Position numbers and translations under genes: made by a program
Notes under the pieces: generated by a model
Told to the model about the DNA's origin: nothing
The model's input: the letters and a program-made list of their open reading frames with translations, nothing else
The model's database searches: none
Shown here: positions 1 to 64,000 of the stretch, in pieces
Numbering within the stretch: the stretch's first letter is position 1
Layout: every line of letters starts with the position of its first letter
NCBI RefSeq assembly: GCF_006345805.1
Contig: NC_043017.1
Coordinates: 9,052,001 to 9,116,000, forward strand
Source: Octopus sinensis
Lineage: Eukaryota
DNA length: 64,000 nucleotides
Direction of reading: 5' to 3'

Positions 1-1329
1 GGCATACTAACGTTTCTGCCAGCTTGCTGCCTTACAAGTAATTGACTATATCCTCCTTCCAAATTGCAGGCCTTGTTCCTATAGTAGAAAGCATTATTTA
101 TGGGGGAAAAGAAAATGAGAATTTCTTCAGCTGAAATGGATTTCTTAGTGCTGCTATAATTATTAAAGTGGAACATGTAGTAACTGGTGCTGACCCCCTT
201 TTGGTACCAACTTGCTTGAGACTGTGCCTGGTTCTATGACCACAAACTATTTTAAAGAGATCTGAATTATAATCATCTGTCAAAATGTTTTGTTAATTTG
301 TTCTAGACACCAGCTTAATAATGACTGAATTATTTTACTAAATTCTTGATTATTTTAAAAATCAATTTGAAACAAAGCTATCATATGTCAACAGAACTAT
401 GGTAATAAAATGGTTATTGAAACCAATGGCTATTTTGATGATCCCCGATAAGCACTCTCAAAAAAATCTTAATGAAAGGGCATATTGATGCATTTACTGT
501 TTGTTAATGAAGAATAGGTAACTGACCACCATATAATTAGGAATAGTTTGTCTTAGAGTACGGATCTGTAATTGGATGTCCGATGTGGAGGCCGTGAATT
601 TGAGCTTGAGATCATACTGGTTTGATGAGCCTACTCTGCTGCCCTTGATCAAGATGTCTTGGCAAAGGGGTGCATACCCAGAAGTAGTTATGTCACATTA
701 CAATGACCCCAGTGCTCAACTGGTATTTATTTTATCGACCCCCGAATGGATGAAAGGCAAAGTCAGTCTTGGTGGAATTTGAACTCAGAACGCAAGAACA
801 GACAAAATACTAAGCATTTTGCCCGGCATGCTAACGACTCTGCCACCCAGATAGAATGTCATGGCCACTATTAACAATCCTGCTTTTTTTGTGTTTTTGT
901 TTCAACTAAAATGTTCTAAAATTTAGTGATTTTCATTTTTGCGGCATTGTTGACACTGTCACTAATTGCATTATGCTAATTAAAATATTTTCATGTTTGC
1001 ACTTAGTCAAGTTAAAAACATGGAAAATAATAATAATAATAATAATAAAAAAAAAGACATTTCTCATTTTATTTATAGCTTAAATAGTTTGTGATTAAAT
1101 CAGCAGAAATATTTAATGTTTATTCATCAGTGTAGTCTTATCTTTAAATTAAAGAGACGCCAGTGTGTATGTGTGTGTGTGTGATATGAATATATATGCA
1201 TGTATATAAACATATGTATCTATGTATACATTTTAAAATGTATATATTTATGTCTATATGCACACACATGTATATATGCATATTTACATATGTATGTACA
1301 TGTATATATGTGTGTATATTATACATTCA

Positions 1330-2536: not shown

Positions 2537-2581
<45 letters not shown>

Positions 2582-16680: not shown

Positions 16681-16682
16681 TT

Positions 16683-16715
<33 letters not shown>

Positions 16716-36023: not shown

Positions 36024-36391
36024 TTAAGAAGCTGCCATCACCCCCTTTTTCTCCTCCAGTTCATTGCTCTGTGCTGCAGTCAGCTCTGCCGCTTGGGGCT
36101 GCACAGACACGTTGCTTTGTGGAAGCGACACACCTTCACTAGCTCCCTCGCTTGCCACTGTAGTTGCTGCCGCTGTGGCTGGTGGCAGTGTCGCGGGTAT
36201 GGAGGAATACGTCATACCGGGCGCTGTGGAGATACTGCTGGCTGGCACTGTGCTGGCAGGCATCATGGATGCTGACAGATTTGGTAAACTAATTAGGGGT
36301 GGAACCATTCCTGTGCTGAAAGCAGGAGGTGCCATCATTCCAGTAGTCATGGGTGGTGGTACCATTCCTGTGGTGAGAGGAGGCACAGTCG
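36024..36391 (-). CDS. GORASP2: GRASP terminal coding exon, ATVPPLTTGMVPPP...EEKKGVMAAS-stop
   Basis: tttcag| acceptor, phase 1 entry, ORF 36024..36386 to TAA. The ten exons sum to 1368 nt (455 aa plus stop). Confidence 0.88.
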
Positions 36392-37515
36392 CTGAAATAT
36401 TAAAAATTGTAACAAAATCAAATCAAATGGTAATTAAAAATAAGACATCTACTTTCTTAAAACCTAATCATAATAATAACGATTTTAATAATAAAGATTT
36501 CAAATTTTGGCACATGGCCAGCGATTATGGGGAAGGGGGCAAGTTGATTACATTGACCCCAATACATAACTGGTACTGATTTTATTGACTCTGAAAGAAT
36601 GAAAGGCAAAGTCTACCTCGGTTGTATTTGAACTCAGAAAAAGCCAAAAGAAATGCTGTATAATGTAGAAACAATTTTGCCAGTTCACTGCCTTAATTAC
36701 AATCGTTATAAATTTTGGCACAAGGCCCCTCCCCAAAGCTGCAGGTCTAAGTTAAATTGGTCTCAGTGTTCTACTAGTGCTTATGTTACCGACCCCAAAA
36801 GGGTGAAAGGCAAAGATGGTGCCATCAGTGAATGTAAAAGACTGAGGATTCTGCCAACTCACCAGCCTTTTAACCCCGTGACAATGGCTTTTTATCAGGC
36901 AATTAAGTTGCACTGACGGCAATCATCTCAGCTGAGACCAGCAATTATATACAAGAAATACGGTTTGGCATATATTTATGCCAACCACTTTAAAGCATGC
37001 TCTTGTTTATGTAAATTGTCATCATTACGAGGATAATAAATTCAATGAAACTGGCATGGCTGGATGCAACAGTAAATTTCGTGAGTGATAGATATTTTTA
37101 TCAATCACAACACGAACAGATACAAAACTGCTGCAGATAGGGCTGTGGACATAAAGCGAAGACACAGCACCATCAGTTTTGAGAGTTGATCCCAGTATGC
37201 AACTGGTACTTAATAATAATAATTTCTCTTATATGCACAAGGTCTGAAAGTTTAGGGAAGGAGACTAGTAATTATTTCGGGGTCAATGTAATTTTAGCTC
37301 GTGTGTGTGTCCCCTTGTGCTTGTCAACCAGTGTTGGTGTGTTTACATCCCTGTCACTTAGCAGTTCAGCTAAAGCAACTGATAAAATAAGTACAAAACT
37401 TTAAAGAATAAGTCGTGGGGTTGATTTGCTTGACTGAAATTCTCCAAGGCAATGCTCCAGCATGGCCGTGGTCAAGTAACTGAAACAAGTAAAAGATAAA
37501 GGTATTGAGACTTAC

Positions 37516-37695
37516 CTCCTGCTGCAATTGTTCCTGCCCCAGCTGCAGCTGCCCCTCCGACAACTCCAGGGTTGATTGCTGATGTAGAGAACGTGGGGGG
37601 TATGGTTGGGAATCCAGGTATAGATATTGGAGTGGTCAGTGGAGGAAGTGATGCAAAGTTTGGTAAGTTTAGCATGGCTGTCGGGGGTGGCAGAG
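37516..37695 (-). CDS. GORASP2: GRASP exon (SPR), LPPPTAMLNLPNFASLPPL...AGAGTIAAG
   Basis: ttccag| ... |gtaagt; 180 nt, phase 1/1; overlaps ORF 37472..37675. Confidence 0.88.
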
Positions 37696-38467
37696 CTGGA
37701 AAAGAGAGACAAACAGACAGACAATAAAATGACTGGAGGATCAGAAGGGGCTCAGGTATTTAGAGGTAACTTTGATCACATTCCAGCCCCCACCCCAACT
37801 GATTAATGACCTACAACACTATTAGTCGAAATGACTGGTTTTACCCATTTATTGTGGTGGTCGAATTGCCCAGAATTATTATTATTATTAAGAAAAAAAC
37901 TGTCCTGTGGATAGTGTTTTTGCGTTCAATATATATATGGGTGTGTGGTTAAGAAGTTTGCTTCTGAACCACATGGTTCCAGGTTCAGTCCCACTGCACG
38001 GCACTTTGGGCAAGTGTTTTCTAGTATAGCCCTGGGCTAACCGAAGCCTCATAAAACTGAAAGAAGCTCATCATACACACATACATATCTTTGCTATTAT
38101 GTTAAACTGTCGTATGTCCAAATTTGTCCAAATGCATTTTTTTCTTTTCTTTCAATATTTATTTTCGCTTGCAACAGCCGGTTCTTTTGGTCAAACTGTC
38201 GTATCTCCAGCTGCTTTAGATGCCAAGGTATCAAAAATTGTCGAAGTGTAGCACAACAGTTTTGCTATGGAATGGTGAAACTATTTTTGTGCTTTCTGAA
38301 AAAGCAAAGTTTTGGACTTACGACACTTTTGCTTAATAGTAACGATGTATAGTTTATTGAAACAGATATGAAGGGTAGTCATGGGTGGACTACTTTTAAT
38401 TATACGGTCAACTGAGTCACTGGGATTAAACAACAACCTTAACAACAGAAGAAAAGTAAGGACCTAC

Positions 38468-38584
38468 TTGATGCTGAACCTGGTGGAAATGTTAAGGGTG
38501 CGGAGAAAGGCATCTGGCCTGGAACCCCACTGGCCCCAGACATTGCATCAACTGGATTGTTTAAGACAGGGATAGTTGGGACAC
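38468..38584 (-). CDS. GORASP2: GRASP exon (SPR), GVPTIPVLNNPVDAMSGASGVPGQMPFSAPLTFPPGSAS
   Basis: ttgcag| ... |gtaggt; 117 nt, phase 1/1, open frame, Pro/Ser-rich. Confidence 0.85.
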
Positions 38585-38960
38585 CTGCAAATACAGAAAG
38601 GAAACACTCAACAGAAGAACAAAAAAGGGATACAATGGCAGTCTTTTTTTTTTGGCTTTTATTACAAAATTAAATGACAATATATTATTTATATTGAGAA
38701 CTTCCAAGAGACAGCATTAATCCTGCCGAGGTGAACTTTGCATCCTTCCAGGGGTTAAGAAAATCAATTCCAGTAGAGTACTTTTTCTTCCCCACAAAAT
38801 TGTCGGCCTTGTGTCAAAAATTTGAGTCATTAATAATAATAATCTTTTGTAAAGTCAATACCACCATGACTGATATCCAATCTACAGTGGAGAAGGCTAG
38901 CCACTGGATTCGGTTAAAAAGAGACGATGAGTGATGGCTAGAAGTATATTGAGTTCTTCA

Positions 38961-44740: not shown

Positions 44741-45455
44741 AGAATGTAGTGACACATTCTAAAGTATATATATATATATACTCCACTCAGTTGAGGGGAT
44801 CGTGTGTTGTGAGCTACTTGGGGACTTTACCAGTGATGGTGTCACATAAAAAAAAAGTACTGTACAGGTCAAAGAATAGAGGCCAAATTAATATGGACCA
44901 CATCTTCCCAGAGGTAACAATGAGATTTTGTAGGACCAACACCCCTACTTCGAAAAAAAAAGGGGCTAAGTTACAGAAGCATCAATGAGTATTCAAAACC
45001 AACAAGACTTGGGAGTGGAAGGCCTCCCCCCCCCAGGGTAACATATACAGGAAGAATGAAAACCCAACATCCTGCATTACACACCAGGCTGTTACCTGGG
45101 ATACACAAGGGAGGTGGAAGGGGCTGAAAGTAGCAAGAGGAGGGTCAATGGGGCAGAAATGAAAAAGTAGGGACCCAACAGGAGAGAAGTAAAAAAGACA
45201 GCTCAGAGTTGAACAGAGTGGGAAAAAGAAAGAGTTGTTGATGGTCTACACCCCATAGGGAAAGAAGGGCTTCAGTAAGGACATTGCAACCGTCATTTTC
45301 ATATATATATAGGAGGTTATGAGAGGTAATGGTGTCAGTAAGACCACAAAGTGTCAGGTAATGCCGAGTAAGTGCTATGGATAGACCAGAGTTAAGCTCC
45401 AGGTTCGGTGATTATGCGAACAAGGAGTCCAACGTAGGTCATATATCAGTGTGTG

Positions 45456-45864
45456 TATACATAAAAATTTTTTTCAGAATGAAATGAAAAAACCAAGGCT
45501 GTGTAGATTTTAGAACATTTATAAATAGGTCTTACAGTTGTTTCCAGGATATTTATTATATCCCTTCAACAGAGACGGTGTGAAAAAGTGGTTGAGCAAT
45601 AGTTAATTTAGATAAGATACGAAAGAGAGAGTGAAGTGGAATGCAATATCCCTGCATATCTCATGTCTATTTTCATTCCTCCACTTCACTCTCTATTTCG
45701 TATCTTATCTAAATTAACTATTGCTTAGCCATTTTCTCACACCGTCTCCAATGAAGGGATATAATAAATATCCTGGAAACAGCTGTAGGACCTATTTATA
45801 AATGTTCTAAAATCTTCACAACCTTGGTTTTTTATCTCATTCTTAAAAAAATTGTGTATGTATA
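45456..45864. mobile_element. Fold-back element (arms ~45456-45640 and 45680-45864) with degenerate hammerheads at 45529-45576 (-) and 45744-45791 (+)
   Basis: Inverted arms of ~185 bp; inferred consensus GTCT-CTGATGA-AGGGATAT-aataa-ATATCCTG-GAAA-CAGCTG-TA-AGAC. Confidence 0.75.
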
Positions 45865-46103
45865 TATATATATATATATATATATAGATATGTATATATG
45901 TATGTATATATATATACATGCTAGCATGGAAAACGGATGCTAAACGATGATGATGATGAGGATGATATTTATATTAATAAAAGGAATTCCAACCTTGTCT
46001 GATTTTTACGTTTTATTTACAATCTTATAATGATATATAAGATAATATAATATAATATAATAGAATAAAATAAAATAGTAGAATGTTAAATGTTCATTCT
46101 GAT

Positions 46104-46148
46104 TGAACTAGTACTTTCATGCATTAAATTATGCAATCTTCAGGTTCA
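46104..46148 (-). ncRNA. Minimal type I hammerhead ribozyme motif, core intact, sense to the GRASP pre-mRNA
   Basis: Minus strand TGAAC-CTGAAGA-T-TGCAT-aattta-ATGCA-T-GAAA-GTAC-TA-GTTCA. Confidence 0.75.
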
Positions 46149-46223
46149 TGAAGATTGTCCGGTATCAGATCAATCCCAAAATCTAATCAGTTCGTGCCAG
46201 TCATGAGGCCAAACATCACTGAA

Positions 46224-46268
46224 TGAACCTGACGATTGCAGAATTTAATGCATGAAAGTACTAGTTCA
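46224..46268 (+). ncRNA. Minimal type I hammerhead ribozyme motif, core intact
   Basis: TGAAC-CTGACGA-T-TGCA-gaatttaa-TGCA-T-GAAA-GTAC-TA-GTTCA: stem I TGAAC/GTTCA, CUGANGA, stem II, GAAA, palindromic AGTACT helix III, UH site at 46262-46263. Confidence 0.75.
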
Positions 46269-46437
46269 ATCAGAATGAACATTTAACATTCTACTATTTT
46301 ATTTTATTTTATTCTATTCTATTATATTATATTATCTTATATTATATCATTATAAGATTGTAAATAAAACGTGAAAATCAGACAAGGTTGGAATTCCTTT
46401 TATTAATATATTCTTCTATACACAATCACACACACCC

Positions 46438-46485
<48 letters not shown>

Positions 46486-46628
46486 GGTGTATATCAAAAC
46501 CCTGTTTAAAGACATGATCCAGCTTCCTTGAATTTAGGTCCCTAACTTTGTTGATTCTAATCCAGAAAGAAAAACACCAATTTAAAAATCAAGAACAAAA
46601 GGGTTTGAGAAGATGTTCAGATAGTTAC

Positions 46629-46759
46629 CTTCCTTCGCCACCCCACTGGTTATTTGGGGTGATGGTCACCTCACGACAGCTGTCTGAATCAGTATTATAG
46701 ACATACAACTTGAGAGGTTTGCCTTCGTAAGACTCTATTAATGTGAACAGATCTTCAGA
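46629..46759 (-). CDS. GORASP2: GRASP exon, [43 protein letters not shown]
   Basis: ttgcag| ... |gtaact; 131 nt. Confidence 0.96.
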
Positions 46760-46896
46760 CTGCAACGAAAACAAAAACATATACAGACACACAAACACGT
46801 TTGTATATAGATTGGTGATTAACACAGCAGAGGAGGTACATGATAGGTGGCAGCAGGGGTATTAGGTGGTTGGGATGTGTGTGGTGGTGGTGGTAT

Positions 46897-47070
46897 GTTA
46901 GTTAGTTAGTTAATTTTTTGGCTCAAAAAGCAAAAAAGCAAGGCCATGTAGGGGGACATGAAGTTATGTACAGGGAGGGTGTTCATGTAAAGAGTTCAGG
47001 CCACTTGTGGTCAAGGGAGACTTTGAACTGAGCGGTTGTCGGTCGTCGGCATCTTCACCATCTCGTCCCT
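46897..47070 (-). mobile_element. Short 5'-truncated retroposon with (TAAC)n tail
   Basis: gttagttagttagtta at the left end; flanked on both sides by atgtgtgtggtggtgg (46875 and 47071). Confidence 0.5.
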
Positions 47071-47855
47071 ATGTGTGTGGTGGTGGCTGGGAAGTGTGTG
47101 GTGGTGGCTGGGAGTGTGTGGTGGTGGCTGGGAAGTGTGTGGTGGTGGCTGGGAAGTGTGTGGTGGTGGCTGGGATGTGTGTGGTGGTGGCTGGGAAGTG
47201 TGTGGTGGTGGCTGGGAAGTGTGTGGTGGTGGCTGGGAAGTGTGTGGTGGTGGCTGGGAAGTGTGTGGTGGTGGTGGCTGGGAAGTGTGTGGTGGTGGCT
47301 GGGAAGTGTGTGGTGGTGGCTGGGATGTGTGTGGTGGTGGCTGGGAAGTGTGTGGTGGTGGCTGGGATGTGTGTGGTGATGGCTGGGAAGTGTGTGGTGG
47401 TGGCTGGGATGTGTGTGGTGGTGGCTGGGATGTGCGTGGTGGTGGCTGGGAAGTGTGTGGTGGTGGCTGGGATGTGTGTGGTGGTGGCTGGGAAGTGTGG
47501 TGGTGGCTGGGAAGTGTGGTGGTGGCTGGGAAGTGTGGTGGTGGCTTGGAAGTGTGTGGTGGTGGCTGGGAAGTGTGTGGTGGTGGCTGGGATGTGTGTG
47601 GTGGTGGCTGGGAAGTGTGTGGTGGTGGCTGGGATGTGTGTGGTGGTGGCTGGGAAGTGTGTGGTGGTGGCTGGGATGTGTGTGGTGGTGGCTGGGATGT
47701 GTGTGGTGGTGGCTGGGAAGTGTGTGGTGGTGGCTGGGATGTGTGTGGTGGTGGCTGGGATGTGTGTGGTGGTGGCTGGGAAGTGTGTGGTGGTGGCTGG
47801 GAAGTGTGTGGTGGAGGCTGGGATGTGTGTGGTGGTAGCTGGGATATGTGTGGTT
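47071..47855. repeat. 21-bp G-rich minisatellite, ~37 copies
   Basis: Unit gtgtgtggtggtggctggga(a/t); it generates the spurious 290-358 aa ORFs. Confidence 0.97.
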
Positions 47856-48295
47856 GTGTGCTGTATGGTAATAGTGTGACTGGTATTGTGGTGGTGGTGG
47901 TATGTAGCAGCAGTGTATAGGTAGAATTAGTAATGCAGAGTAAGAAGTGATGATGATGATTGTGTGAGTGGCTGAAGGGGAAAAGAGACACACACACACA
48001 CACACAACTAAGCAGAAACAAAATCACAACCACACACACACAACATAGAGACATGTAGTCATACACACACCATACACAGACCAACATTTAATCTCTGCCT
48101 CCCTCTCTCTCTCTCTCTCACACACACACAGGCAAACATCCTACTACACAGACAAATATGTAATCTCACACACACACACACAGATGGTCACAGCTGAAGA
48201 AATGAGATGAAACTGTGAAGCAAGAAGACATGCAACAGAGAAAAAGGAGGAGAGACAGAGAGAGAGCGAGAGAGACAGATAGACAGAGAACTTAC

Positions 48296-48382
48296 CTCAT
48301 GTAATACAGAATCTGCCCCAATAATGTAATCTGTGTTAGATCGTAGACTGGCCAGGTCAGCAGGTGAGTTAGGGTGAACCTC
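48296..48382 (-). CDS. GORASP2: GRASP exon (PDZ2), EVHPNSPADLASLRSNTDYIIGADSVLHE
   Basis: taacag| ... |gtaagt; 87 nt; DYIIGAD motif. Confidence 0.96.
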
Positions 48383-48399
48383 CTGTTAAATAACAACAA

Positions 48400-48735
48400 T
48401 AAAAGTCCTCTCAACAATTAGCCAGAGATGATTTTTAAAATGAGAATATCTGAAATAAACTCGACTGCTCTCACAAATGAGAATACTTAAAATGAACCCG
48501 ACTGCTATCAAAAATGAAGTAAAAAACAAGGTAAGATAATCCAGAATCCTTGTCTGGTACCAGATTGGTCCCAAAATCTAATCAGTTTGTGCCAGTCATG
48601 AGGCCAAACATCCCTGAAAGTTTCATTCGAATCCATTCAGCAGTTCTTGAGATATTTTTGTCCACGGACAAACAAACAAACAAGCAAACACACCTAAAAA
48701 CAATACCTCCACCTTTGCTAAGGCAGAGGTAATAA
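48400..48735 (-). mobile_element. Helentron-associated (DINE-1/HINE-like) non-autonomous element
   Basis: Minus strand starts ttattacctctgcctt..aaggtggaggt (inverted repeat), then (GTTT)n. A homologous copy in the opposite orientation lies at ~26020-26230. Confidence 0.6.
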
Positions 48736-48937
48736 CTTCAAATTTTGGCACAAGGCCAGCAATTTCGAGGAAGGGGATAAATTAACTACATTGATCCCAA
48801 TATGCAACTGGTACTTGTCGACCCTGAAAGGATGAAAGGCAAAATCGAGCTCAGTGGAATTTGAACTTGGAACACTAAGACAAACAAAATGCTGCTAAAC
48901 AGTTTATCCAGTGTGTTAGTGATTCTGAGGGCTTGCC

Positions 48938-49480
48938 ACATCATCATTTAACATCTGCTTTCTGTGCAGGCATGGGTTGACGGTTTGACTGAGGACTGTC
49001 AAGCCAAGAGGCTTCACCAGGCTCCAATCTGATCTGGCAGTGTTTCTACAGCTGGATGCCCTTCCTAACACCAACCACTCCAAGAGTAGTGGGTGCTTTT
49101 TATGTGCCCCGGCACAGGTGTCAGTCAAGCAGCACTGGCATCAGCCATAACTAAGATTTCACTTGACTCAACAGGTCTTCTCATGCACAGCCTGATGACT
49201 GAAGGGTACTTTTAAATAGACCAGATATGTGACACTGGCATCGGCCATGGCTGCAATCTCACTTGACTTGTTGGGTCTTCTCAAGCACAGCATATCTCCA
49301 AAGGTCTCAGTCACTTGTCATTGCCTCCGTGAGGCCCAACATTTGAAGGTCGTGCTCCACCACCTCATCCCAGGTGTTCCTGGGTCTACCTCTTCCACAG
49401 GTTCCCTCAACTATTAGGGTGTGACACTTCTTCACACAGCTCTCCTCATCCAAATGCAACACATGACCATACCGACACAG
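48938..49480 (-). mobile_element. 5'-truncated RTE-clade LINE (ORF2 C-terminus, 3' UTR and (GAT)n tail)
   Basis: Translation YGHVLHLDEESCVKKCHTLIVEGTCGRGRPRNTWDEVVEHDL resembles the RTE C-terminal GHV...G.R.RGRP..TW motif. The same 3' UTR recurs at ~27590-27915, 29418-29740, 52800-53046 and many shorter copies. Confidence 0.8.
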
Positions 49481-49549
49481 TAGTAATACTCTTTTACTTG
49501 TTTCAGTCATTTGACTGCGGCCATGCTGGGGCACCACCTTTATAACAAC

Positions 49550-49580
<31 letters not shown>

Positions 49581-49769
49581 GATAATTGTTTCTAATTTAG
49601 GCAGAAAGCGAGCAATTTCAAAGGGAAGGATTTAGTTGATGTCATTGCAGGGCTTTATTTCATTGACCCTGAAAGGATAAAAAGCACAGCTGGCCTCAGA
49701 AAGATTTGAACTCAGAATGTAAAAACCTGCATTTTTCAATGTTCAAATGATTATTATATTAGCTCATTA

Positions 49770-50142
49770 TCTCTCTCTATATAAACGGCACTTTGTCTGT
49801 GCGTGTTTCTGTGTGTCTGTTTGCTTGTACCCTCACCCTGACCACGGCTTTCAACCGATTCTGATGAAACTTGACACACACATAGCCCAATGTCATAATT
49901 CAAAACTAACGCAGCGAAAATTTTGAAAAGTTCCCCCAGTTCTGAAAAAAAATCGATAAATTCGACATGGGGTCGAGAATCAGAAACACAAACTGCAAAC
50001 TGTCTAGGGGACGCAACTCCACCTTTTTTAACTAAAAAAAAATTTACCATCATTTTTTTGCTATTTTTTGGCTATAACTCTCTAAAAATGCTTTATAGTT
50101 ATTTCCCTTACAAACCTGAGCAACGCCGGGCGATACTGCTAG
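49770..50142 (+). mobile_element. Non-autonomous Helitron, apparently full length
   Basis: Begins with TC after an A, has a subterminal hairpin cctgagcaacgccggg (50115-50130), ends with CTAG before a T, and has no target-site duplication (TSD). Confidence 0.8.
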
Positions 50143-50815
50143 TTATTAATAATAATAGTCCTTTTTACAACAGGCACAAGGCCTGAAATTTTGATGGAGG
50201 AGGGGGAGGCAGTCGATTTGATCAACCCCAGTGCTCAACTGGTATCTATTTTTATCAACCCCGAAAGGATGAAAAATTAAGCATTTGAACTGAGAGCATA
50301 ATGAAGAAGAAATACTGCAAAGCATTTGGTCTGCGAGGCAGAACGGTTCTGCCTTAATAATCGTTTCTGCTTTTCTACAAAAAGTACAAACCTGAGATTT
50401 GTGGGGAGAAGGGGGGGCTAGGTGAATACTTAGATACCTTCTCCCCTCTCCCCCGAGTACTCGACTGGTACGTATTTCATCAACTTCGAAAAGGACGAAA
50501 GGTGAAGTCAACCTTGGTGGGATTTGAACTGAGAACATGGAAGACGGACGACCATTACTTTAATGAATAATAAACAATAATTGATTTTAATTTAGGGCAG
50601 AAAGCCAGAAATTTGGAAAGGATTCCATTGGCACCAGTTGGCCTCAGCAGGATTTGAACTCAGAACATAAAGTAATGCAACGGATACCTGCAAGGCATTT
50701 CTTCTGATGCTTTAGCAATTCTGCCAGCAAGTAATGGGGTGGGGGGGGGAGAAAAGAGAGAACAGAACAATATTTGTAAATGAAAAACAGAAGCAAGGGA
50801 AAGTTGAAGACTCAC

Positions 50816-50861
50816 CAAAATGTGCCAGACATTTTCGTTAGCACCTTCAAAAGAGCAGAAT
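50816..50861 (-). CDS. GORASP2: GRASP exon, FCSFEGANENVWHIL
   Basis: ctccag| ... |gtgagt; 46 nt; in frame with its neighbours. Confidence 0.96.
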
Positions 50862-51015
50862 CTGGAGGAGAGAAAGAGAGAAAACATCATTTTTATATAT
50901 CATCATCATCATTTAACGTCCGCTTTCCATGCTAGCATGGGTTGGACGGTTCAACCGGGGTCTGGGGAGCCCGAAGGCTGCACCAGGCCAGTCAGATCTT
51001 TATATAAAATACTGC

Positions 51016-51446
51016 TGTATTTTGGGATAATCATTTGTTTTTTGTTTTTCTTTGCCAAATAAACACGCACACTATATATTTTGTTCTACACTTGTTTATT
51101 TCTGTTCTTATTCTAACTCATGTCCACTGTCTGGAAATCTTTCACCACACATCTGTGACCTCTTCAGTGACACTTTCCATCATCGTGTCTGCTCTTGCGC
51201 CACTTAGTCTATTCAGAATGTAAAGTGATGGGACAAGAACAGAATGGAGCAAGTGGAGCAAGAACACACATGAAAACGAAAAGTGTCGCTGAAGAGGTCA
51301 CAGATATGCGATGAAAGATTTCTAGACAATGGACATGAGTTAAAACAATAAAATAAAAACAGCAATAAATGAGAGAAGGTAAAATATATATTGCTTGAGT
51401 TTATTTGGCAAAAAAAGAGAAAAGAAAATGACCATTCCAAAATACA
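51016..51446. mobile_element. Older fold-back element with hammerhead-like motifs at 51128-51172 (-) and 51284-51328 (+)
   Basis: Diverged inverted arms; both keep TGTC-n-CTGAAGA-G-GTCACA..TGYGRT-GAAA-GATTTCYA-GACA. Confidence 0.65.
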
Positions 51447-51689
51447 ATAATATCTGTTTCAACACATGACTTCACATCAGGAATCTTGCTAAACAAACTT
51501 CGTAAATAAATATACGTATTTCTCAATTTTCTGGATGAAGACCATTATGTGTCTATAAAGGCAATAAAAATACAGTTTGCAGTTGGTGGGGCATCTGTAC
51601 ATGGAATTATTCTCGAAGATCTGAACATGCTCAAAACTTGTTCCTGGGATCTTGATAACCAACTCCAAGACAGAGATGGACATCAAAAC

Positions 51690-51979
51690 TGTCCCTCTCT
51701 CTCTCTCTACAGTTCAGACTTCTGGTTGTTTCCCAAGTTGAAAGAGAACCTCAGGGGCAGTCGTTTTGACAATGAAGGACGTTGTGAGATGGGTCCTGGA
51801 CACCATCACTCTGGAGGGCTTCCATGGGGCCTTCACAAAGTGGCTGGTGTGATACAAAAGGTGCATTTGAAGTCAGAGGACCATCCTACTTTGAAGGAGA
51901 TTAGAGTTTTGTGTTTATTTGAGTTTAATAAATGTCTCTCCTGAGGAAGTCTGAAGAACGTCTGGAATGCACCATGTAT
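51690..51979 (+). mobile_element. Degenerate mariner transposase 3' remnant
   Basis: YSSDFWLFPKLKENLRGSRF resembles mariner YSPDLAPSDF.LF..LK..L.G.RF with an internal deletion; ends at a TA. Confidence 0.7.
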
Positions 51980-52520
51980 TTCCCTTCCTTCATTTAAGCA
52001 TTAAATGACGGAACACAACATTTGTTCAAACTTGTCCTTCTTGTGTTGTCTTTTTTCCTTTTTGTTTATCAAATTTCCACTGCATAACAACTACAGCCAT
52101 TAGGAAACAGTCATAAGCAGACGAGGGAGACAAACAGACAGATGGATGGATAGACATAGACAGATATATACATATGGAGATAGATACAGATAAAGGGTGA
52201 ACTATAATTAATTTAATAATATCAACAAATTTCACCTAGTAGTATTTCGGTATGGAAAAGGACCGTATTCGGTAAAAATTTATATAATTATAATAATAAG
52301 GGTTTTTTGCAACAAGTTGCTTAAACCACATACCGAAAATATTAGAAATAGCAGCCAAAGGACAACTATTTATAGTATCTATTATAATTATGGAGATAGA
52401 TACATAGATAGATAGATGGATAAATAGATAGACATAGATAGATATAGACAGAGAGAGAGAGAGAGAGAGACAAAAGAGCAAAAGAGAGAAAGAGACATGC
52501 AGTGAAAGAAAAATACTCAC

Positions 52521-52678
52521 CGAATACTGACCCCCAGCAATCCTTGTCCCCCCCATTTATGGCTCGGAGTGATCGTCACCTCACGTACTGACTGACTCTT
52601 GCTGCTGTAAACGGTCATCTTCACAGACTTGTCCACATTGCACTTCAACAATTCCTTCAGTGTGTCATTGTCTTGGTT
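52521..52678 (-). CDS. GORASP2: GRASP exon, [12 protein letters not shown]...[19 protein letters not shown]
   Basis: ttccag| ... |gtgagt; 158 nt; [12 protein letters not shown] motif. Confidence 0.96.
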
Positions 52679-53639
52679 CTGGAAAACAGAGAAAAGATGA
52701 CAAACAGTTATCTTACAGTTTCTCTTGTCACATATATGGAGGCACGGGTCAGATATCAATGCAACAAGAAGTTCATACATACATACTTATAGATACATAC
52801 AGTAAAAAGCATCATCCGAACGTGATTGATACCAGGCCTGCTTGATTGGCCCCTGTGCTGGTGGCACGTTAAAAGCACCCACTACACTTTCAGAGTGGTT
52901 GGCGTTAGGAAGGGCATCCAGCTGTAGAAACCATGCCAGATCAGATTGGAGCCTGGTACAGCCTTCTGGCTTTCCAGACCTCAGTCAAACCGTCCAACCC
53001 ATGCCAGCATGGAAAACGGACATTAAATGATGATGATGATGATGATAACACACACACACACACAAAATATTTCATAGACACATTTCGGTATGTCTAATCC
53101 TTTAGTTACCATGTCTGTTGAAACCCACTGCTTTTGTTTCAATTAATTTTGAAAATGATTAAGAATTTGGTTGACTTTGTCATCATTAAGCTGATGTTTG
53201 GAACAAATTAATGGGAAATTCTGATGGAAGGATTTTGAGATCACTTCAAAACATGGTATTGGTGTCTTGGCAGTCTCAGTCAGTTTGGCGTCAAAAGGGT
53301 TAATAGATACACACACATACACATATGTGCACTACACACAAACACTGCTGTGTGTGTGTGTACGTTTACATACACACACACACATATATATATATATCAT
53401 CATCATCAATTAACATTTGTTGTACCGTTGTCCATGCTGGCATGGGTTGGACAGTTTGAATGGGGCTGGCAAGCTGGAAGGCTGCACCAGACCACAGTCT
53501 GATTTGGCATGGTTTCTATGGCTGGATGCCCTTCCTGATGCCAACCACTCCGAGAGCGTAATGGGTGCTTTTACATGCCAACCACTCCGTGATTTTACTT
53601 GGCTTTGATGGGTCTTCTTCTTAAGATATACATATAGTT

Positions 53640-53790
53640 GAAATTTACAGAAAACAAAAGGCAAAGACAGGTGAGGGCACAACAAGCAGGTGTATTAGTT
53701 TGACATTCAGGAAGAATGGAAAAGTCTTTGATGTTTCGAGCCTATGCTCTATAACACAAAGGGTTGAGAGGGGTAAAAAAGGGAGAAAAA
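53640..53790 (-). mobile_element. Penelope-like fragment with decayed hammerhead at 53726-53761
   Basis: Minus strand CTTT-gtgttat-A-GAGC-atag-GCTC-GAAA-CA-TC-AAAG. Same architecture as the 12.8/17.3 kb family, but CUGANGA is destroyed. Confidence 0.5.
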
Positions 53791-53828
53791 TTTTTTTTAA
53801 ATGTTTATAGGTTAACAGTTCAACATAA

Positions 53829-53864
<36 letters not shown>

Positions 53865-53913
53865 AGATGTACTTGCATAGTAAGTGATTTGATCTGAGAT
53901 CGTGTGCTGGAAT

Positions 53914-54061
53914 GAAATGCAGCATGAAGTTTTGTCAGTGAACAGGTCGCAGTCTCAAAGCGACAAAAATATTTTGACATTTTAAATTTAAATGTTGAAG
54001 TGAATCTAATGGTTTTTATGTGTTTCTTAAATGGGTTATAAACACCTTCCATGCTGCAATT
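53914..54061 (+). mobile_element. Repeat with short terminal inverted repeats (tgcagcatgaag / cttccatgctgca) and a decayed hammerhead at 53933-53979
   Basis: TGTCA-gtgaaca-G-GTCGC-agtctcaaa-GCGAC-aaaa-ATAT-TT-TGACA: helices intact, core mutated. Confidence 0.45.
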
Positions 54062-54062
54062 G

Positions 54063-54126
<64 letters not shown>

Positions 54127-54556
54127 AACACATACATATATACAGAAAGAGAGAGATAAATGCATGTATGTATATATATATATATATTAAACAACATTAA
54201 ACAGGATATCTAGTTTTCTTTTGTAATTTGAAATAGAAATATAACAATGCATTGTGAGATAAGAATATCGGAAGCACATATGTCTTTCTTACAGGTGCAA
54301 ATGGACCAACAGTCCTAACCTGTCTCTTTCTATAACGATACTAAAAATAAAGGTGTGTGCACAATCATATTTAACCTGTTAAAGTATGAGAATGTCACTT
54401 GCTGCAGAAATATAGTTTTGGGAGAAAATTCTCCTCATAGATAAAATCTCTGAAAGCACATCATTGGATTGTAGGAGGCATGCATTTCTGCATTGTTACA
54501 CTTCATCAGATACGAATGCTGCATTTATCTTCAACTGCTTGCACCAAACAATATCT

Positions 54557-54783
54557 GTTTCTTTATTGCCCACAAGGGGCTAAACATAGAGGGGACAAAC
54601 AAGGACAGACAAACGGATTAAGTCGATTACATCGACCCCAGTGCGTAACTGGTACTTAATTTATCGACCCCGAAAGGATGAAAGGCAAAGTCGACCTCGG
54701 CGGAATCTGAACTCAGAACGCAATGACAGACTCAATACCGCTAAGCATTTCGCCCGGTGTGCTAACGATTCTGCCAGCTCGCT
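54557..54783 (-). mobile_element. SINE family B copy
   Basis: Reverse complement of 25191-25416; CpGs retained. Confidence 0.85.
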
Positions 54784-56707
54784 TTACAACAACCATACTT
54801 CAATATACGTGATTTACAAATATATTACAATAAATATTGTTTTCAAAATACACTGCAAAACTGTTTTATAAAGATTAGAAAAAAAACTTAGTATTACCAT
54901 ATAAATACCTTAAAAATGTATATATATATATATATATATTATATGTGTATAAAAATTTAAGCAAGCTCCTGGACCTTAGCGTTTGATTCCCGTCACCAAG
55001 ACAACAGCTGAATATAAAGGGAGGTGGCAAACTTAGATTGACAAGTTGTGTTTGGTTTTTTAAATAATATATTTCAGAGGGCAGCAGGAGGGGGGAAAGG
55101 AGTAGTATGAGTGGATGTGAGGGTGGGAGAGGATGAATCACTGAACGGTTGAAAAGTTTAGTTTGCAACCATGATGTCTTTGGTTCAATCCCATTACTCA
55201 GCATATTGTGGGACGAAGGTCTGTACTACTGTAGTCTTGAGCTGAGCCAAGGAATGATAGGAGTGAAACTGGGCTGATGGAAACTGTATGGAAGCCTGTT
55301 AGACAGACCAGACCTCCTGGTCATCATCATTTTTAATGCTCACTTTTCTATGTTTGCATGTGCCAGATAGGTAAGATATAGTTACCTTCTTGGGCCCTAC
55401 TGACTCTTAAGGGCTGGTTTTCCTGGTCTCCATGGCGTAAAGCCCACCTGCATGGGACACTGGTCTGTCGCAGGACGACTCATTTTTGCCAGCTGAGTGG
55501 ACTGGAGCAGTGTGAAGTGAAGTGTTTTGCTCAAGAACACAATGTGTTACTCAGTTCAGGAATCGAAACCACAATTTTACAATCATGAATCCAACATCCC
55601 TAACCACCAAGCCATGCACCTCTACCCAAATGGGCCAAATGCAGTTTATTGAAGCAGATTTTCTATGGCCAGATGCTCTTCTTGTCACCAACCCTCACTG
55701 GTTTGTAGGCTAAGTTAATATTTACCTGTAGCCAGACATGTTTTCATGGCAGACTGAAAACAACACTGCTTGTATGACAGTGACTCTTGCTTACAACTAT
55801 CACATGATGCCAAGATAAGGAGACACAAACACAGACCCATGCAAGGTAGGCTTCTTTTAGTTTCTGTCTATCAAAACCTATACTTAAGACTTTGGTCAGC
55901 CAACAGCTATATTAGAAGCCACTGGCTACAAGTGCCTTGCAGTGGGACTGAACCAAAAACCATGTGTTTGGGAAGCAAACTTCTTAACCAGAAAGCCATG
56001 CCTGCATTTATACAAACAGTACCATGGTGAGTTTGCCACAAGATCAGGGGAAAGAGGAAGGAAATATCTGAGGAATACTCAGCCACTTACATACGATAAT
56101 ACGATGAGTAAGAGCCATTGATCAAGCAACTGAAATACTCAGCTAAAACTGCAGAGAGTTCCATTAATGAGGAAACAAATTCCAAATGGAGTTCCTGATT
56201 TGGGACTTGGTTTACCATCAACCTCATTCTTGATGAAAATTGTCTTGAAAATAATCTCAAATCTTCGTAGTTAATCTACATTTCTCAATCAGTGGCTGAT
56301 AGTTTTACAGACTGGCCGAACTTTCTGGAACTATAATCAGGACACTATTTCTCTTAAATGCCAGACCAAATTGATGGCCGTGTAGTTTAAAGGGCAACAC
56401 CACAGACAGACCCTCTTCCCCTTTCTGGGGTTTCTGCAGGCAAAGTACATAATTAGATTAACCTCACTGGAAGGAGGTTCGCAGCAATCTAACCACTCAG
56501 TCAAGTGGTTGGTCACAGGAAGGTGTTCATTCATCCAGATTTTGCGTTATGGGTAATGTATTATGCGCCCTTGAATCAAGGTACATAACTCTGTTATGTG
56601 ACTGCCCCATTGACAATGAGCTTCAAATTTACAGGCCACTCCCCCACCCACCAAAAAGAAACTAAACACAACTCATACATAACAAAGGAAGAGAAAAGGA
56701 AGGAAAA

Positions 56708-56773
<66 letters not shown>

Positions 56774-56832
56774 TTAAAGAAGGTGGTTGTTTGAGGCTGG
56801 AACAATGCAAGAAGGTACAAAGTAAACTACAC

Positions 56833-57025
56833 AAAGAAAACAAAACAAAAAGTGGCAGGTTTACCATGTATTTCTATATTTTGGGGGTGCAGACCCCTTC
56901 TTCAGGACATTTGGAAAAAATTGACTTTTTTGAACAACCATTTTTACCAAATGTCCTGAAGAAGGGGTCTGCACCCCAAAATATAGAAATACAAGATGAA
57001 ACTGCATCTTTGTTCTGTTTTCTTT
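56833..57025. mobile_element. Short fold-back element with hammerhead-like motifs at ~56872-56909 (-) and 56952-56988 (+)
   Basis: Arms read TGTC-CTGAAGA-A-GGGGT-ctgc-ACCCC-AAAA-TATA-GAAA; GAAA is replaced by AAAA in both arms. Confidence 0.65.
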
Positions 57026-57058
57026 AAAGTTATTCCACACAATGCTTCAATAAAACTA

Positions 57059-57094
<36 letters not shown>

Positions 57095-60000
57095 GTCTAG
57101 CACCTTCAGAATATACTTTTTGATTCTAGGCCTTGCATCATTTCATATATTATAACATATGGACATTTTCATTCTAAACTTAAATTGCCCCGCTCACTCA
57201 ATCAATGAAAACATGGCTCTTTTGTCTTAGAATGGACTAAATAATTGATAAGAATTTAACTTTTTCAGACATTTCATGAACAAATTCACACATATTGGAA
57301 GCATTTAATTTCTAACTTATGGCTTTTGAAATGTTAACATTTTACTCTTTTTGATGAGTCATCTCTTTGTTTTGTTTACTCTTTACTTGTTTCAGTCATT
57401 TGACTGTGGCCATGCTGGAGCACCGCCTTTAGTCGAGCAAATCGACCCCGGGACTTATTCTTTGTAAGCCCAGTACTTATTCTATCGGTCTCTTTTGCCG
57501 AACTGCTAAGTTACGGGGATGTAAACACACCAGCATCAGTTGTCAAGCAATGCTAGGGGGACAAACACAGACACACAAACACATACATACATATACATAT
57601 ATATATATATATACATATATACGACAGGCTTCTTTCAGTTTACGTCGGCCCGGGGCTATAGCAGAAGACACTTGCCCAAGATGCCACGCAGTGGGACTGA
57701 ACCCGGAACCATGTGGTTGGTTAGCAAGCTACTTACCACACAGCCACTCCTGCGCCTTTGTCAAATAATTTTTATAATAACAATGCTAGAAGAAAAGTAT
57801 ATTTACAACTTCCAGACAATATTTGTTACATCTGTATATCTGTTGCATTCTACAAGCAAAACCAATGCTCACTATTTTATTATAAAATACTTTGTTTTGT
57901 TTTTCACTAACATCTAAAAATCAGGAACAAGAAACTCAGAGTGATGATGTGCAAGAATCTGGCTTTCAATAAATTCTTTACATTATACACACACACACAC
58001 CAAGAATAGCAACATCATTTAATATCTGTCTTCCATGCTGGCATGTGTGGGATGGTTTGACAAGAGCTGGTAGACCAGAGGACTGCATCAAGTTCTATTG
58101 TCTGCTTTGGCATGGTTTCTATGGCTAGATGCCTTCCTTCAGAATATATGTACACTTCTTTGGTGATAGTTGTTTTGCTATATATTTCTACACTTTTCCA
58201 TCACACATTTTACTAGCTATATATGCCTGTCTCCTCCATATAACTTTCCTTGTTTTGCTTTTCTATTTTTATCTTCTTTATATATGTTTATATGTATGTG
58301 TTTCTATATTTATATATTTGCTTACACATAGATGTATACATGCATATATAGATACAAATATAAACACACACACACACAGTGCAATCCTTTTACGAAGTAT
58401 TAAAAAAAGTTGAAGATAAAAATGAAAACAGGTCAAGAGACATGCAAGGAGAATAAATAGAAAGAAACCCTTGGGCCAAACTGATTGATCTGCCTTGAAC
58501 AGGAGAATCGTGAAGCAAAAAGGGAGGCCGGCGGGTAGAAAATAGAAAGTACATACAAGAACCTTTTCACCATGTTGGCTAGCTCCTGGACTCTGTGGTG
58601 GACAAATTATCAAGAGAGATAGATAGAGGCAGAAAACAATATAATTGATATTTATTAATGACTGAGGAGACCATTCCACAGATATTTTCAATGATGATGA
58701 TAAGGATGAGGATGATGATGTGCTTGTTTGTGTGTGTTTGTGTGTGTTTGTGTTGATATTGTGCTTGTTAATTGTAGATAAGGATCTGGATCATACAAAG
58801 CGGTGACTTTTGTTTGCAGTCTTCAGTGAAAGCATGCCTGCACTAGGGACACATATTACCTCCCTTGAAAACAGGTGAGAGTTGGTGACAGGAAGAGCAT
58901 CCAGCTGTTGAAAATTCTACCTCAACAAATCTCATCTGACCCATGCAATCAAGGAGATGCTGAATTAATGATATACGTATATACTTCAGGTTGTCCCAGT
59001 CCACTCAGCTGTAAATGAGTAAACAGGCGACAGACTTGCACCCCATTGAGAAGGAATGGTATGACCTCAGTCACTTATACACCATGCAAGCATGGAGAAG
59101 TTGACATTTGAATAACAATGATGATGATTATGATGATAAGACCATTTCTAATATTGATTTCAAATTTTGATGCAAGGCCAGCAATTTCCATAGAGGGCTT
59201 AGTCAATTACATTGACCCCTAGAGCTCAACCAGGACTCATTTGATTGCCCCCACCCACCCACAAAAAAAAAAGAAAATCAATGTTGCCTGTGGCAAAATT
59301 TGAACCCACAATGTCAAGATGAACAAAATGCCACTAAGCATTCTACCTGGTGTGCTATTGATTCTGTCCGCTTGCCTTGTTACATTTCTAACACTGGCAA
59401 CAAATCAACTCTTCATAATTAGTAAATTGATGTCATTAAAATCGTTACACCTAACGATAGTATTTATTTGTGGTTTGGAGAGCCAGTGTCTCGCTTCTGA
59501 TTAGATGAAGTCATTAAGATAATGACTGGGGTCATTTTAATTAATTAATCATAAACCTATGACTTCTCTCGTTACGTTACGTTAATTTGTTAATTGCTTT
59601 CTATTGTTGAAGTCCTTTCATAACAACTGACCCCTTCAACCCGTTTTGCTGTAGATGTTATTTCCCCCCACCGACGTACGGTGTACCTAGGACTACATTA
59701 TTTAAAGTATCCTTCCTTTCTTTTTCATCTTCTTTTAACTGATGCATCTACATCACCAACACCTTTCTTTTCAAACTGAGGTAACCCTGCATCTCCCCTA
59801 CACTATGACACCTGTTCCGGTCCCTCCTCCCTATCATATCTTAACCTCATATCACCTCATATCACCTCCCTCAATATTTCTCTCTTTACTCCACCCTCAG
59901 TTGAGGAGGAGGGTTTGTCTCACAAGTTACTTGGTGGCATCACTAGCGCCGATTGCCATGTAAAAAGCACCCCCTACACTCTCTGAAGTGGTTGGCATTA

Positions 60001-60739
60001 GGAAAGGCATCCAGCTGTTCAAACCATGCCAAAAAGACATCAGTGCAGTCCTCTGGCTTAAATGGAAAACAGACATTAAATGAGGACCGTTTTATTGTAT
60101 AGTAGGGTATGATTTTGAGGGAGATTGAGAGACAATGTAGAGAGGCCTTCCTTGTTGACTTGAATTTTAAAAAAACTTGTTGAATGAGCAAGTGAACATG
60201 GATCAAAGAAGGAACCCCAGTCATTACTCAGCCTGCTAAAAATAGCAGCCAAATCCCTTTCAGATCACACCTTACTGCCTTACACAAAGATGTAAGAGAA
60301 AATGTAATCCTTATTGTACAAAACAACAAGACCGTCACAGCTGCAGTTTCTTTGATTAATTCCACTTGAGGGCTAACCTAGGGTTAAGGAATAATCATCT
60401 TTTGAATAACATTGGATCCTAAAGTCCATATTCAGCTCCATTTAGCAGAGAGGACCCTTCTCTCTGCCCCAAATACATTTAAGTTGATGATGTAAAAACA
60501 AAAAGTATAATTAAATAAATAATAATTTCTACTCTTAACGATGAGAATCTAATAAAAATTCCTATCATAAAGGCACCGACATGGCTGTGTGGTTAAAAAG
60601 TCCACCTTGTAACCATGTGGCTTTGGGTTCAGTCCTACTGTGTGACACCTTTGGAAAGTGTTATCAGTTATAGCTCCAGACCAACCAATGCTTTGTGAGT
60701 GAACTTGGTCTATGGAAACTGTGCAGAAGCCTGCTGTAT

Positions 60740-61130: not shown

Positions 61131-61200
61131 AGCCTGTTGTATATGAGGAGGCTAACAGGCTGGAACTTCAAAAAACAGTCCATCTTCTTGTAAAAGTTTA

Positions 61201-63326: not shown

Positions 63327-63407
63327 CAGTCTTGTGTTGTCAATGGCGACAATGAAATCAAAGAATGCTTCTAGTCCAGCTTTATGGCCAGGAGAACCGT
63401 CTTGAAC
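63327..63407 (-). CDS. GORASP2: GRASP55/65 homologue, probable exon 2 (PDZ1), [27 protein letters not shown]
   Basis: Minus-strand ctccag| ... |gtaagt; 81 nt, phase 0/0; matches the GRASP domain. Exon 1 (myristoylated N-terminus) is not seen and is presumably beyond 64000. Confidence 0.95.
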
Positions 63408-64000
63408 CTGGAGGAGAGAAAGAATATCCAGATGTCACGAGAACAATTTACACACACACACACGCAGACACACAGACATCTTCCTGGTCTTGGAAAGTCT
63501 GTAAAGGCAATGGATAAAGCCACCATCTCTAGGGACCAAAATACACAAACGCTGACAGACACATAAATACTCATTCACACACATATTAAAAAAAGCAAAA
63601 AAACAATCACTGTGCTATATATATATAAATTGTTTAAAGCAGACTCAGTGCAGAATAAGCCAGTGGTGGTGGTGGTGGTGGTATAATAGCATTTTTCATG
63701 TAATCCCAAGTTGCAGTTTATTGGCAAAATGTGGATGGTGGTGGTGGTTGTGTCAGGAGGTCTGATTAGGTTAAAGTGGAACCTGTTAACAGTTAAACAA
63801 GGCCGAGAACTTAGGGGTTAAACAACAACCCCAGAAGGGCAAGGGCACCTTTGATAATGTAGTCCAAGATACATAATGCCTGAGGTCTGTTGGATTAAGA
63901 GCTAAACAGCAACAACAACTTTCACTCACAGACCTAAATAAGTAATGTATTTACAGGTGGGTGAGAAGTTGGGTTTGCGTGTGTGTGGGTGTATGGGTTT

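Follow-up and report, generated by a model that had tools for sequence, protein, structure and literature searches.

The DNA considered here, referred to as the window, is a stretch of 64,000 nucleotides from Octopus sinensis (contig NC_043017.1, positions 9,052,001 to 9,116,000 of the forward strand), and all coordinates below are positions within it. It contains the GRASP55/65 gene on the minus strand and, in the region of that gene, four short fold-backs (E1 to E4), each bearing two hammerhead ribozyme motifs that face outwards. Each arm of these fold-backs is the 3′ end, or pseudo-long terminal repeat (pLTR), of a multi-copy Penelope-like element (PLE). The palindromes are probably made up of two 5′-truncated, hammerhead-bearing PLE ends lying head to head, the likely result of one integration event in which both cut strands primed reverse transcription. 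The head-to-head architecture itself is already known as a product of PLEs.

The window was compared with itself by BLAST, and arm identities and mutual similarities were read from this comparison. The fold-backs were found where the first-pass annotation had placed them, at 45456-45864, 45970-46410, 51016-51446 and 56833-57025, and are the only short-spacer fold-backs listed. The identity between the two arms is 87% in E1, 79-86% in E2, 74% in E3 and 84% in E4, and no BLAST similarity was seen among the four, as had been supposed. Each outgrows its earlier limits on one side only, one arm having an unpaired tail; with the tail included, they extend over ~45313-45864, 45970-46437, ~51009-51514 and 56774-57063, respectively. 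Since 512 kb of flanking DNA holds 29 short fold-backs of any kind, about 1 per 18 kb, four in 64 kb is an ordinary density, their grouping within 12 kb being somewhat tight.

The left arm of E1 (45313..45640, minus strand) is a truncated pLTR of PLE family 1, whose hammerhead core starts at 45572, reads CUGUUGA and has lost A6. Its tail of 142 nt (45313-45455, minus strand) is absent from the right arm (45640..45864, plus strand), which comes from the same pLTR, begins ~40 nt further 5′, is tail-less and has a core at 45748 that reads CCAAUGA and has lost G5. In E2, the left arm (45970..46153, minus strand) covers positions -10 to +171 of the family 2 pLTR, has a tail-less end and contains an intact type I minimal hammerhead at 46143. 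A filler of 69 nt (46154..46222, no strand), 90% like an unrelated repeat with a copy at 48550-48618, adjoins this arm and does so in no other scored locus; beyond it lies the right arm (46223..46437, plus strand), which covers -6 to +198 with a 26-nt tail, contains an intact hammerhead at 46229 and is followed by (AT)n. The arms of E3 belong to the pLTR of family 3: the left one (51009..51214, minus strand, core at 51167) is without a long tail and the right one (51235..51514, plus strand, core at 51289) has a tail reaching ~51497-51514, both with an intact core and weakened stems. E4 is formed from the family 4 pLTR, with a tail-less left arm (56774..56919, minus strand, core at 56905) and a right arm with an internal deletion and a tail at 57026-57063 (56924..57063, plus strand, core at 56956); both cores have A in place of G12. 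No coding sequence remains at the four sites, both copies being reduced to the pLTR, and tblastn with the E2 protein found no PLE coding remnant in the window.

A minimal hammerhead facing outward is present in all eight arms, and a scored scan confirmed for all four fold-backs that the motif is on the minus strand in the left arm and on the plus strand in the right arm. The accompanying claim that each has a CUGANGA box, a stem II and GAAA is correct for E2 and E3, where the core is intact, but not for E1 and E4, which have the core mutations given above in both arms. A strict type I descriptor matches only the two E2 arms in the window. In a relaxed scored scan, the eight arms occupy 8 of the top 10 sites, all of them outward, and 5 exact-core sites are present in the window as against 0-2 in each of 12 shuffles. 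Since the maxima of single shuffles (12-22) overlap the scores of the arms (16-24), the case for hammerheads rests on pairing and on conservation in the families and not on single scores. Folds of single motifs are weak (only 2 of 10 with z < -1.8), and Rfam at its gathering threshold gave no match in the window, which is not evidence against minimal hammerheads. Across the families, the core is intact in 37 of 39 arms of family 2, in 22 of 40 E3 arms and in 9 of 33 E4 arms. In family 1, the strict combination of CUGANGA and GAAA occurs in 6 of 51 arms; the commonest core start is CCG (22 of the 41 scorable arms), and an extra G stands ahead of GAAA. Stems I-III are kept across five unrelated families. 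A type I minimal hammerhead in the pLTR, as expected of an endonuclease (EN)-positive PLE, is present in all four fold-backs, in intact form in E2 and E3 only.

The arms are all multi-copy, with 320-4339 first-look candidates and 37-1368 exact short-pattern matches. On walking upstream from genomic copies, reverse transcriptase (RT) and/or GIY-YIG coding sequence was found on the strand of the arm in all four families; parents, for which the first-pass annotation had proposed a search, were thereby located for each. In family 2, a frame encoding the thumb, a Cys-rich linker and GIY-YIG lies upstream on the same strand in loci L005, L010 and L022; in L022 the arm lies ~470 nt below it (PF01541, E 1e-5). 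Its relatives are RT and GIY-YIG proteins of ~580-890 residues, up to 63% identical, and a search with the N-terminus of one of them returned copies that share 97% identity with L022 and whose open frames measure 775-777 codons. All four long E2 loci (L278, L282, L285 and L286) have an RT-EN open reading frame (ORF) of this length between two pLTRs, and in 12 of 12 loci selected because they have a pLTR upstream, that pLTR runs into the leader. The 777-codon frame of L278 matches RVT_1 at E 2e-6, just under the cut-off, and GIY-YIG at E 6e-5, above the cut-off. Family 2 has the organization of an EN-positive PLE, with an RT followed by a C-terminal GIY-YIG and an ORF flanked by direct pLTRs or partial tandems. 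A Cys-rich linker before the EN is given as a mark of Neptune and Nematis (PMC8557442). In L278 (1517-5111), L285 and L286, an upstream frame of 450-467 codons, in a different phase, overlaps the RT-EN frame close to runs of A and T, and this upstream frame is broken in L282; it could be a real second ORF or a frameshift, or reflect assembly errors at homopolymers.

Coding sequence for RT and/or GIY-YIG lies upstream on the same strand in families 1, 3 and 4 as well, their parentage being read from 3′ parts of up to ~2.5 kb. The E3 parent has an RT with YVDD and a GIY-YIG-like end, matched by our own PLE profile at E 8e-11 and 2e-7, and one relative is labelled as RT. In family 4, a GIY-YIG-like end lies ~150-400 nt upstream (profile E 2e-8), and the walk did not reach the RT core. 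Thumb and GIY-YIG-like remnants are found ~1.1-2 kb upstream of E1, with a weak Pfam match to GIY-YIG (E 0.03); a relative with an 86%-identical protein has YRDD and matches the PLE profile at E 1e-5. A homolog search with the E1 fragment gave one match, which bears no Pfam label, and an atlas search with it gave no usable match. E1 is the weakest case of parentage among the families. Family 1 also shows an Asn/Thr-rich stretch between thumb and endonuclease (L129:540-780, L136, L142), which resembles the N-rich inserts of Adineta vaga Penelope elements (PMC3846280). Many PLE copies of several families in the genome, 48-65% to the query, have open frames of 770-796 codons, suggesting recent activity.

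The orientation of neighbouring arms within 3 kb was scored by eye among the exact-pattern matches listed, namely the first 100 of 567 for E2, of 1368 for E1 and of 646 for E3, and all 37 for E4; exact patterns miss diverged arms, and the pair counts are lower bounds. Head-to-head and tail-to-tail pairs numbered 13:0 for E2, 4:0 for E1, 5:0 for E3 and 1:0 for E4, that is, 23:0 among the matches listed (p 2e-7), with 3 direct pairs; a single tail-to-tail neighbour was placed 9 kb away. The first-pass annotation had asked for outward and inward pairs to be tabulated, and an equal frequency of inward pairs was not seen among these matches. Together with the parents of the four families, this orientation supports its proposal that the architecture is a recurrent product of Penelope-like integration yielding inverted pLTRs. 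Non-LTR retrozymes are also non-coding, derive from PLE pLTRs and carry a type I hammerhead (bioRxiv 10.64898/2026.07.22.740005); their units lie in tandem, head to tail, and are capable of forming active dimers and circles, whereas in the window the pairs are inverted and each strand has a single sense ribozyme. Direct pairs are few (3 against 23 inverted) among the matches listed.

In samples taken in list order, head-to-head pairs were present in only 5 of 20 E1, 8 of 20 E3 (two of them duplicates) and 3 of 20 E4 loci, and most copies are therefore single arms. One E1 match and a few E4 matches were skipped in these samples, mostly ones already included. Queries with whole palindromes favour palindromes and similar junctions and were excluded from frequencies. 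Before counting, loci represented more than once were removed, namely those listed on both strands, segmental copies (for example L003/L004) and loci of the window itself. Six apparently solo copies (L200, L230, L241, L250, L251 and L257) have at the 5′ end only an inverted piece the size of a tail; hence, two-sided events are probably commoner than the palindrome counts indicate.

Miniature inverted-repeat transposable elements (MITEs) are non-autonomous DNA transposons, and it is plausible that hairpins of the present kind are open to mislabelling as MITEs, as the first-pass annotation had warned. They share with MITEs the short size (200-550 nt), the hairpin form, a high copy number (hundreds to thousands of matches) and TA-rich flanks; the hammerhead-like letters would then have come to stand in the inverted repeats by chance. 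In place of symmetric terminal inverted repeats with fixed ends, all four window elements, like most pairs in the families, have a tail that makes one arm longer than the other, and lengths are not uniform. Most copies are single-armed, the arms continue into RT/GIY-YIG frames, and the conservation of stems I-III across five families also speaks against coincidence. Retrotransposon parents refute the MITE reading, which can for practical purposes be set aside.

The ends of the arms were analysed by mapping junctions on natural long copies, relative to the hammerhead core. Inner junctions span +149 to beyond -900, and the two arms of a pair are usually unequal in length. The outer ends of family 2 are bimodal: among 75 arms, 36 have their end at +196..198 and 32 have it at +171..173, and (AT)n follows almost all of them. 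Of 23 E2 pairs, 18 have one tailed and one tail-less end, 4 have both ends tailed, 1 is intermediate and none has both tail-less; compared with independent choice, the mixed pairs and the missing double tail-less pairs give p ~0.004 and 0.009, respectively, and mixed ends are found in 11 of 13 pairs from an unbiased list. One-sidedness of the tail is also seen in E1 (14 of 14 chosen palindromes), E3 (9 of 12 chosen palindromes) and E4 (6 of 11 pairs). The E1 tail of ~142 nt compares with 30-40 nt usually quoted for PLEs. The features seen in EN-positive PLEs, namely 5′ truncation, an inverted copy at the 5′ end and an optional tail at one end, are present. Flanks of the fold-backs are mostly microsatellite, (AT)n or (CA)n, in which a TA target-site duplication would be indistinguishable and no duplication of 8-10 bp is legible.

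At the inner side, 18 of 75 E2 arms end exactly at -46 and 24 within 2 nt of it. This site lies 30 nt below a TATA-like TATTTAA with two CCAAT-type boxes above, and the RNA of E2 likely starts there, 46 nt above the ribozyme core. Ribozyme cleavage was considered as the source of the E2 5′ ends and discarded, no arm beginning at +35 (the nearest begin at +17 and +43). In whole elements, the tail is continuous with an ATAT tract and with the leader; ATAT is likewise found beside the inner start site.

The same PLE origin could be combined with a different making of the second arm, if one cDNA (or a copy of an antisense RNA) folded at a small palindrome and copied itself. Self-priming of this kind has been proposed for palindromes at head-to-head junctions (PMC3846280); the -46 end of E2 is quasi-palindromic and recurs as a junction, and arms of a pair usually share variants, which either fold-back or arm-to-arm conversion would yield. 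Folding of a tail-less cDNA, however, predicts double tail-less pairs, of which there are 0 in 23, and leaves the 18 mixed pairs unaccounted for. In 8 E2 pairs, neither arm contains the other, each holding sequence that the other lacks. The window E2 is a further obstacle: its arms are cut at -10 and -6 around the foreign filler, a combination absent from the other scored loci, and at a subfamily site, also borne by 15 other loci, the two do not agree; discordance at subfamily level is seen elsewhere only in L012. Self-priming is accordingly regarded as an unlikely explanation.

It was also suggested in the first-pass annotation that these palindromes form a class of non-autonomous ribozyme fold-back elements, which would move as units and borrow the PLE protein. 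The ends of PLEs are able to function in trans (PMC3846280), E2 has recurrent spacings of 147-148 and 125 nt, four junctions of the -46/-46 type have one polarity, and junctions cluster among the best matches to whole-palindrome queries. The clustering, though, follows from the query used, and samples in list order show varied junctions. Palindromes of the same size in family 2 have different haplotypes, each common to solo copies (L013 with L009; L178 with L191 and L192), and are without the TATA-like box at -76; L013, L014 and L178, all of the -46/-46 type, likewise differ in haplotype, two of these being common to solos. The centre of the window E2 is unique among 40 scored loci. With junctions that differ among copies, movement as units is not supported and is considered very improbable.

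Several observations weigh against the proposal of two PLE ends joined head to head in one event. The E1 endonuclease is below the Pfam cut-off and is not matched by our own PLE profile. Two inward-facing arrangements were encountered, one in L024 across an (AT)n tract and one involving a third arm in L205. Pairs with two tails exist (4 in E2, besides the intermediate one, and 2 of 12 in E3), and 5 of 11 E4 pairs are without a tail by the query used. Central deletions after insertion could imitate arm ends that are unique to each arm. The start at -46 is read from sequence. Most pairs share variants between their arms, private ones included (L012, L182, L185, L187 and L190), and one polarity with respect to the tail is common to the four -46/-46 type junctions (L013, L014, L178 and L184). 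The L024 arrangement (1380-2317) is a tail-to-tail E2 pair with ~90 nt of (AT)n between the arms, which share two private variants, one being tailed and the other tail-less; it looks like both cDNAs of one event resolved outward, and it stands on a small contig with a duplicated flank.

Head-to-head joining of two PLE ends is favoured on account of parentage, orientation, variable junctions, one-sided tails and microsatellite targets. Variable junctions, a tail on one arm and microsatellite ends argue that the palindromes are neither MITEs nor elements moving as units, and each pair was likely built anew on landing. In the proposed sequence of events, the GIY-YIG domain of the element would cut an (AT)n or similar tract on both strands, and each 3′ end would then prime cDNA on the element RNA, one at an inner and one at an outer start site, leaving a tail on one arm. 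Each cDNA would halt early or at the RNA 5′ end, which in E2 is the likely transcription start 46 nt above the core, and the two cDNA ends would be joined by microhomology or filler to give outward-facing twin hammerheads. The architecture is common to the four fold-backs because in every family the hammerhead has stayed close to where the pLTR begins, and the shortest two-sided insertions are twin-hammerhead hairpins. The pairing of E2 ends and the accumulation of ends at -46 favour two cDNAs, one per cut strand, over fold-back. Priming would probably be aided by pairing of the cut (AT)n DNA with the ATAT tracts. A more specific version, which is tentative, is that a PLE dimer primes both cut strands, one per RT start site, through pairing between (AT)n DNA and AU tracts of the leader, and that the cDNAs run to the cap site in the manner of a retroviral strong-stop product. 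If true, one model would account for microsatellite targeting, the one-sided tail and MITE-like hairpins of fixed size, and would replace the antisense self-priming model.

Much of this agrees with what is known of PLEs in other organisms. Inverted pLTRs, most frequently head to head and with a tail on one of the two, were described together with the self-priming proposal (PMC3846280), and inverted 5′-truncated copies and one-sided tails are reported as general features of PLEs (PMC8557442, PMC8969392). With Pen2 and Pen3 of Adineta vaga (PMC3846280) and the scheme in Fig. 2 of PMC8557442, the present elements have in common a 5′-truncated inverted copy at the 5′ end, usually head to head, a short one-sided tail, TATA/Inr-like motifs in the pLTR, microsatellite targets and a small palindrome or microhomology at the junction; they differ in that both copies are cut to the pLTR and in the target duplication of 8-10 bp, which is not legible in the microsatellite flanks here. 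In Schistosoma, pairs of minimal hammerheads on opposite strands, separated by 100-700 bp, were reported (PMC4209133). The metazoan PLE hammerheads of that report share with ours CUGANGA, one extra base before stem II, GAAA, a self-complementary short stem III region (dimer type) and a stem I of 4-5 bp, and differ from the putative ribozymes of two of our families, which have C at position 4 (CCGA): family 1, with its extra G before GAAA, and the family of two solo copies at 12828 and 17357 described below. A PLE protein was shown in vitro to cut both strands and to extend them from two start sites, one at either limit of the tail, ribozyme cleavage not being needed (PMC11167929). This protein, PAc (Poseidon, Anolis), and the present elements agree in these respects and in AT-rich targets. 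For PAc, no homology between start site and cut DNA and no difference between the strands in start site were seen (PMC11167929), whereas both E2 start sites abut ATAT tracts of their own leader and the arms of a pair mostly use different sites. No paper on octopus twin-hammerhead palindromes or on strand bias of intronic PLE hammerheads was found in a search to which subscription papers, Repbase, Dfam and supplements were outside coverage; the supplements of the cited papers may contain closer examples.

The host gene, GRASP55/65, was delineated from Pfam matches and from splice joints in contigs of four runs presumed to be RNA, the latter for the stretch 48100-64000 only. Joints at 48381/50815 and 50861/52521 (three runs each) and at 52678/63327 (four runs) have CT..AC borders, that is, GT..AG introns of the minus strand. 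On this strand, an exon region at 63327..63444 is joined in RNA-type contigs to an exon at 52521..52678 (PF04495, E 3e-12), which is followed by a short exon at 50815..50861 and exons at 48297..48381 (PF04495) and 46629..46759 (PF04495, E 4e-14; Pfam only). E4 is in the intron above the 52521..52678 exon and E3 in the one below it. E2 and E1 lie 190 nt and more below the donor of the 46629..46759 exon and are likely, by their position in the sequence, in the next intron. Three likely later exons were recognized by eye as Pro/Ser-rich frames at 38442-38669, 37475-37759 and 36027-36422 (36027..38669, minus strand), without a Pfam match. None of the runs matching 44000-53000 is recorded as RNA. 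Differences of A>G and T>C in the RNA-type contigs were considered as editing and were not used, as they stem from repeats. Pfam was also run on 52 more frames of the window, and on 146 unmasked frames (a subset of 329 candidates) it revealed no gene in 1.5-30 kb. A G-rich low-complexity tandem repeat of ~1.1 kb at 46960-48090, in a GRASP55/65 intron, contains long spurious open frames.

The location in introns had led to the suggestion that selection against unshielded cleavage shapes the survivors, so that hammerheads sense to the gene persist only when shielded by an antisense arm or dead-cored. For E2, folding predictions give the sense RNA a single hairpin (-264 kcal/mol, z -33) in which the ribozyme is buried, and the head-to-head layout has the antisense arm transcribed first on either strand. 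Tandem retrozymes are reported to be depleted from Xenopus introns (bioRxiv 10.64898/2026.07.22.740005). Both solo motifs that are sense to the gene (minus strand) are broken: as had been noted for 53726, the remnant at 53724..53757, examined by eye, keeps stem II and GAAA and has no CUGANGA, and the motif at 54470..54517 has CUGAUGA, a stem II of 4 bp and GAAA without a valid cleavage triplet or stem I. In each of the four fold-backs, however, the sense arm is no better and no worse preserved than the antisense arm, and two descriptors found no well-formed solo on the plus strand, that is antisense, inside the gene. The claim that the better-preserved solos are antisense was not confirmed: the best ones seen (12828, 17357 and also 30623) are on the minus strand, like the gene, and beyond its last likely coding exon. 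Old copies have decayed whatever their context, as the counts of intact cores in E3 and E4 show, and single minimal hammerheads were without cleavage in vitro (PMC4209133). The geometry applies across the genome with genes left out of account, and no selection is needed to explain it; the numbers are tiny. Selection of this kind is unsupported here and is judged improbable; the palindromes would rather decay neutrally in the GRASP55/65 introns, their ribozymes being passengers predicted to be buried in a long hairpin.

Other hammerhead-like motifs were noted in the window. A fifth family is represented by two solo copies on the minus strand (12781-12839 and 17310-17368, listed above as 12828 and 17357), the best-preserved solos in the window, with a CCGACGA core, a stem II of 4 bp and an ACGU stem III. 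A motif of a further family is found at 30560-30630 on the minus strand, and its relative at L042:2665-2887 forms a head-to-head fold-back of its own. The inverted pair at 15558-16707 (1.1 kb) was rejected as a hammerhead fold-back, since the scans showed no hammerhead in it and its sequence looks like a common short repeat present twice; the scans found none in the inverted pair at 52862-53580 either. In the 512 kb of flanks, outward hammerhead-like motifs were seen in 6 of 29 fold-backs by eye and in 2 of 29 by a first regular expression. Bystander fold-backs of unrelated sequence with such outward motifs, recognized by eye, lie at L030:510-888, L078:90-371, L111:1566-1766, L137:322-718 and L241:319-506, pointing to at least five more families of the same architecture. 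Three inward regular-expression matches among bystander fold-backs (L101, L112 and L120) were dismissed by eye for want of a proper stem II.

To the known behaviour of PLEs, the analysis adds statistics on how ends are paired in the young E2 family. With its intact ORFs and sharp ends, this family offers good natural material for studying how inverted PLE ends arise, and the pairing of start sites and the accumulation of ends at -46 lead to direct predictions for the existing in vitro assay. In genomes rich in PLEs, a share of the short hairpin repeats would be stumps of retrotransposons rather than DNA transposons.

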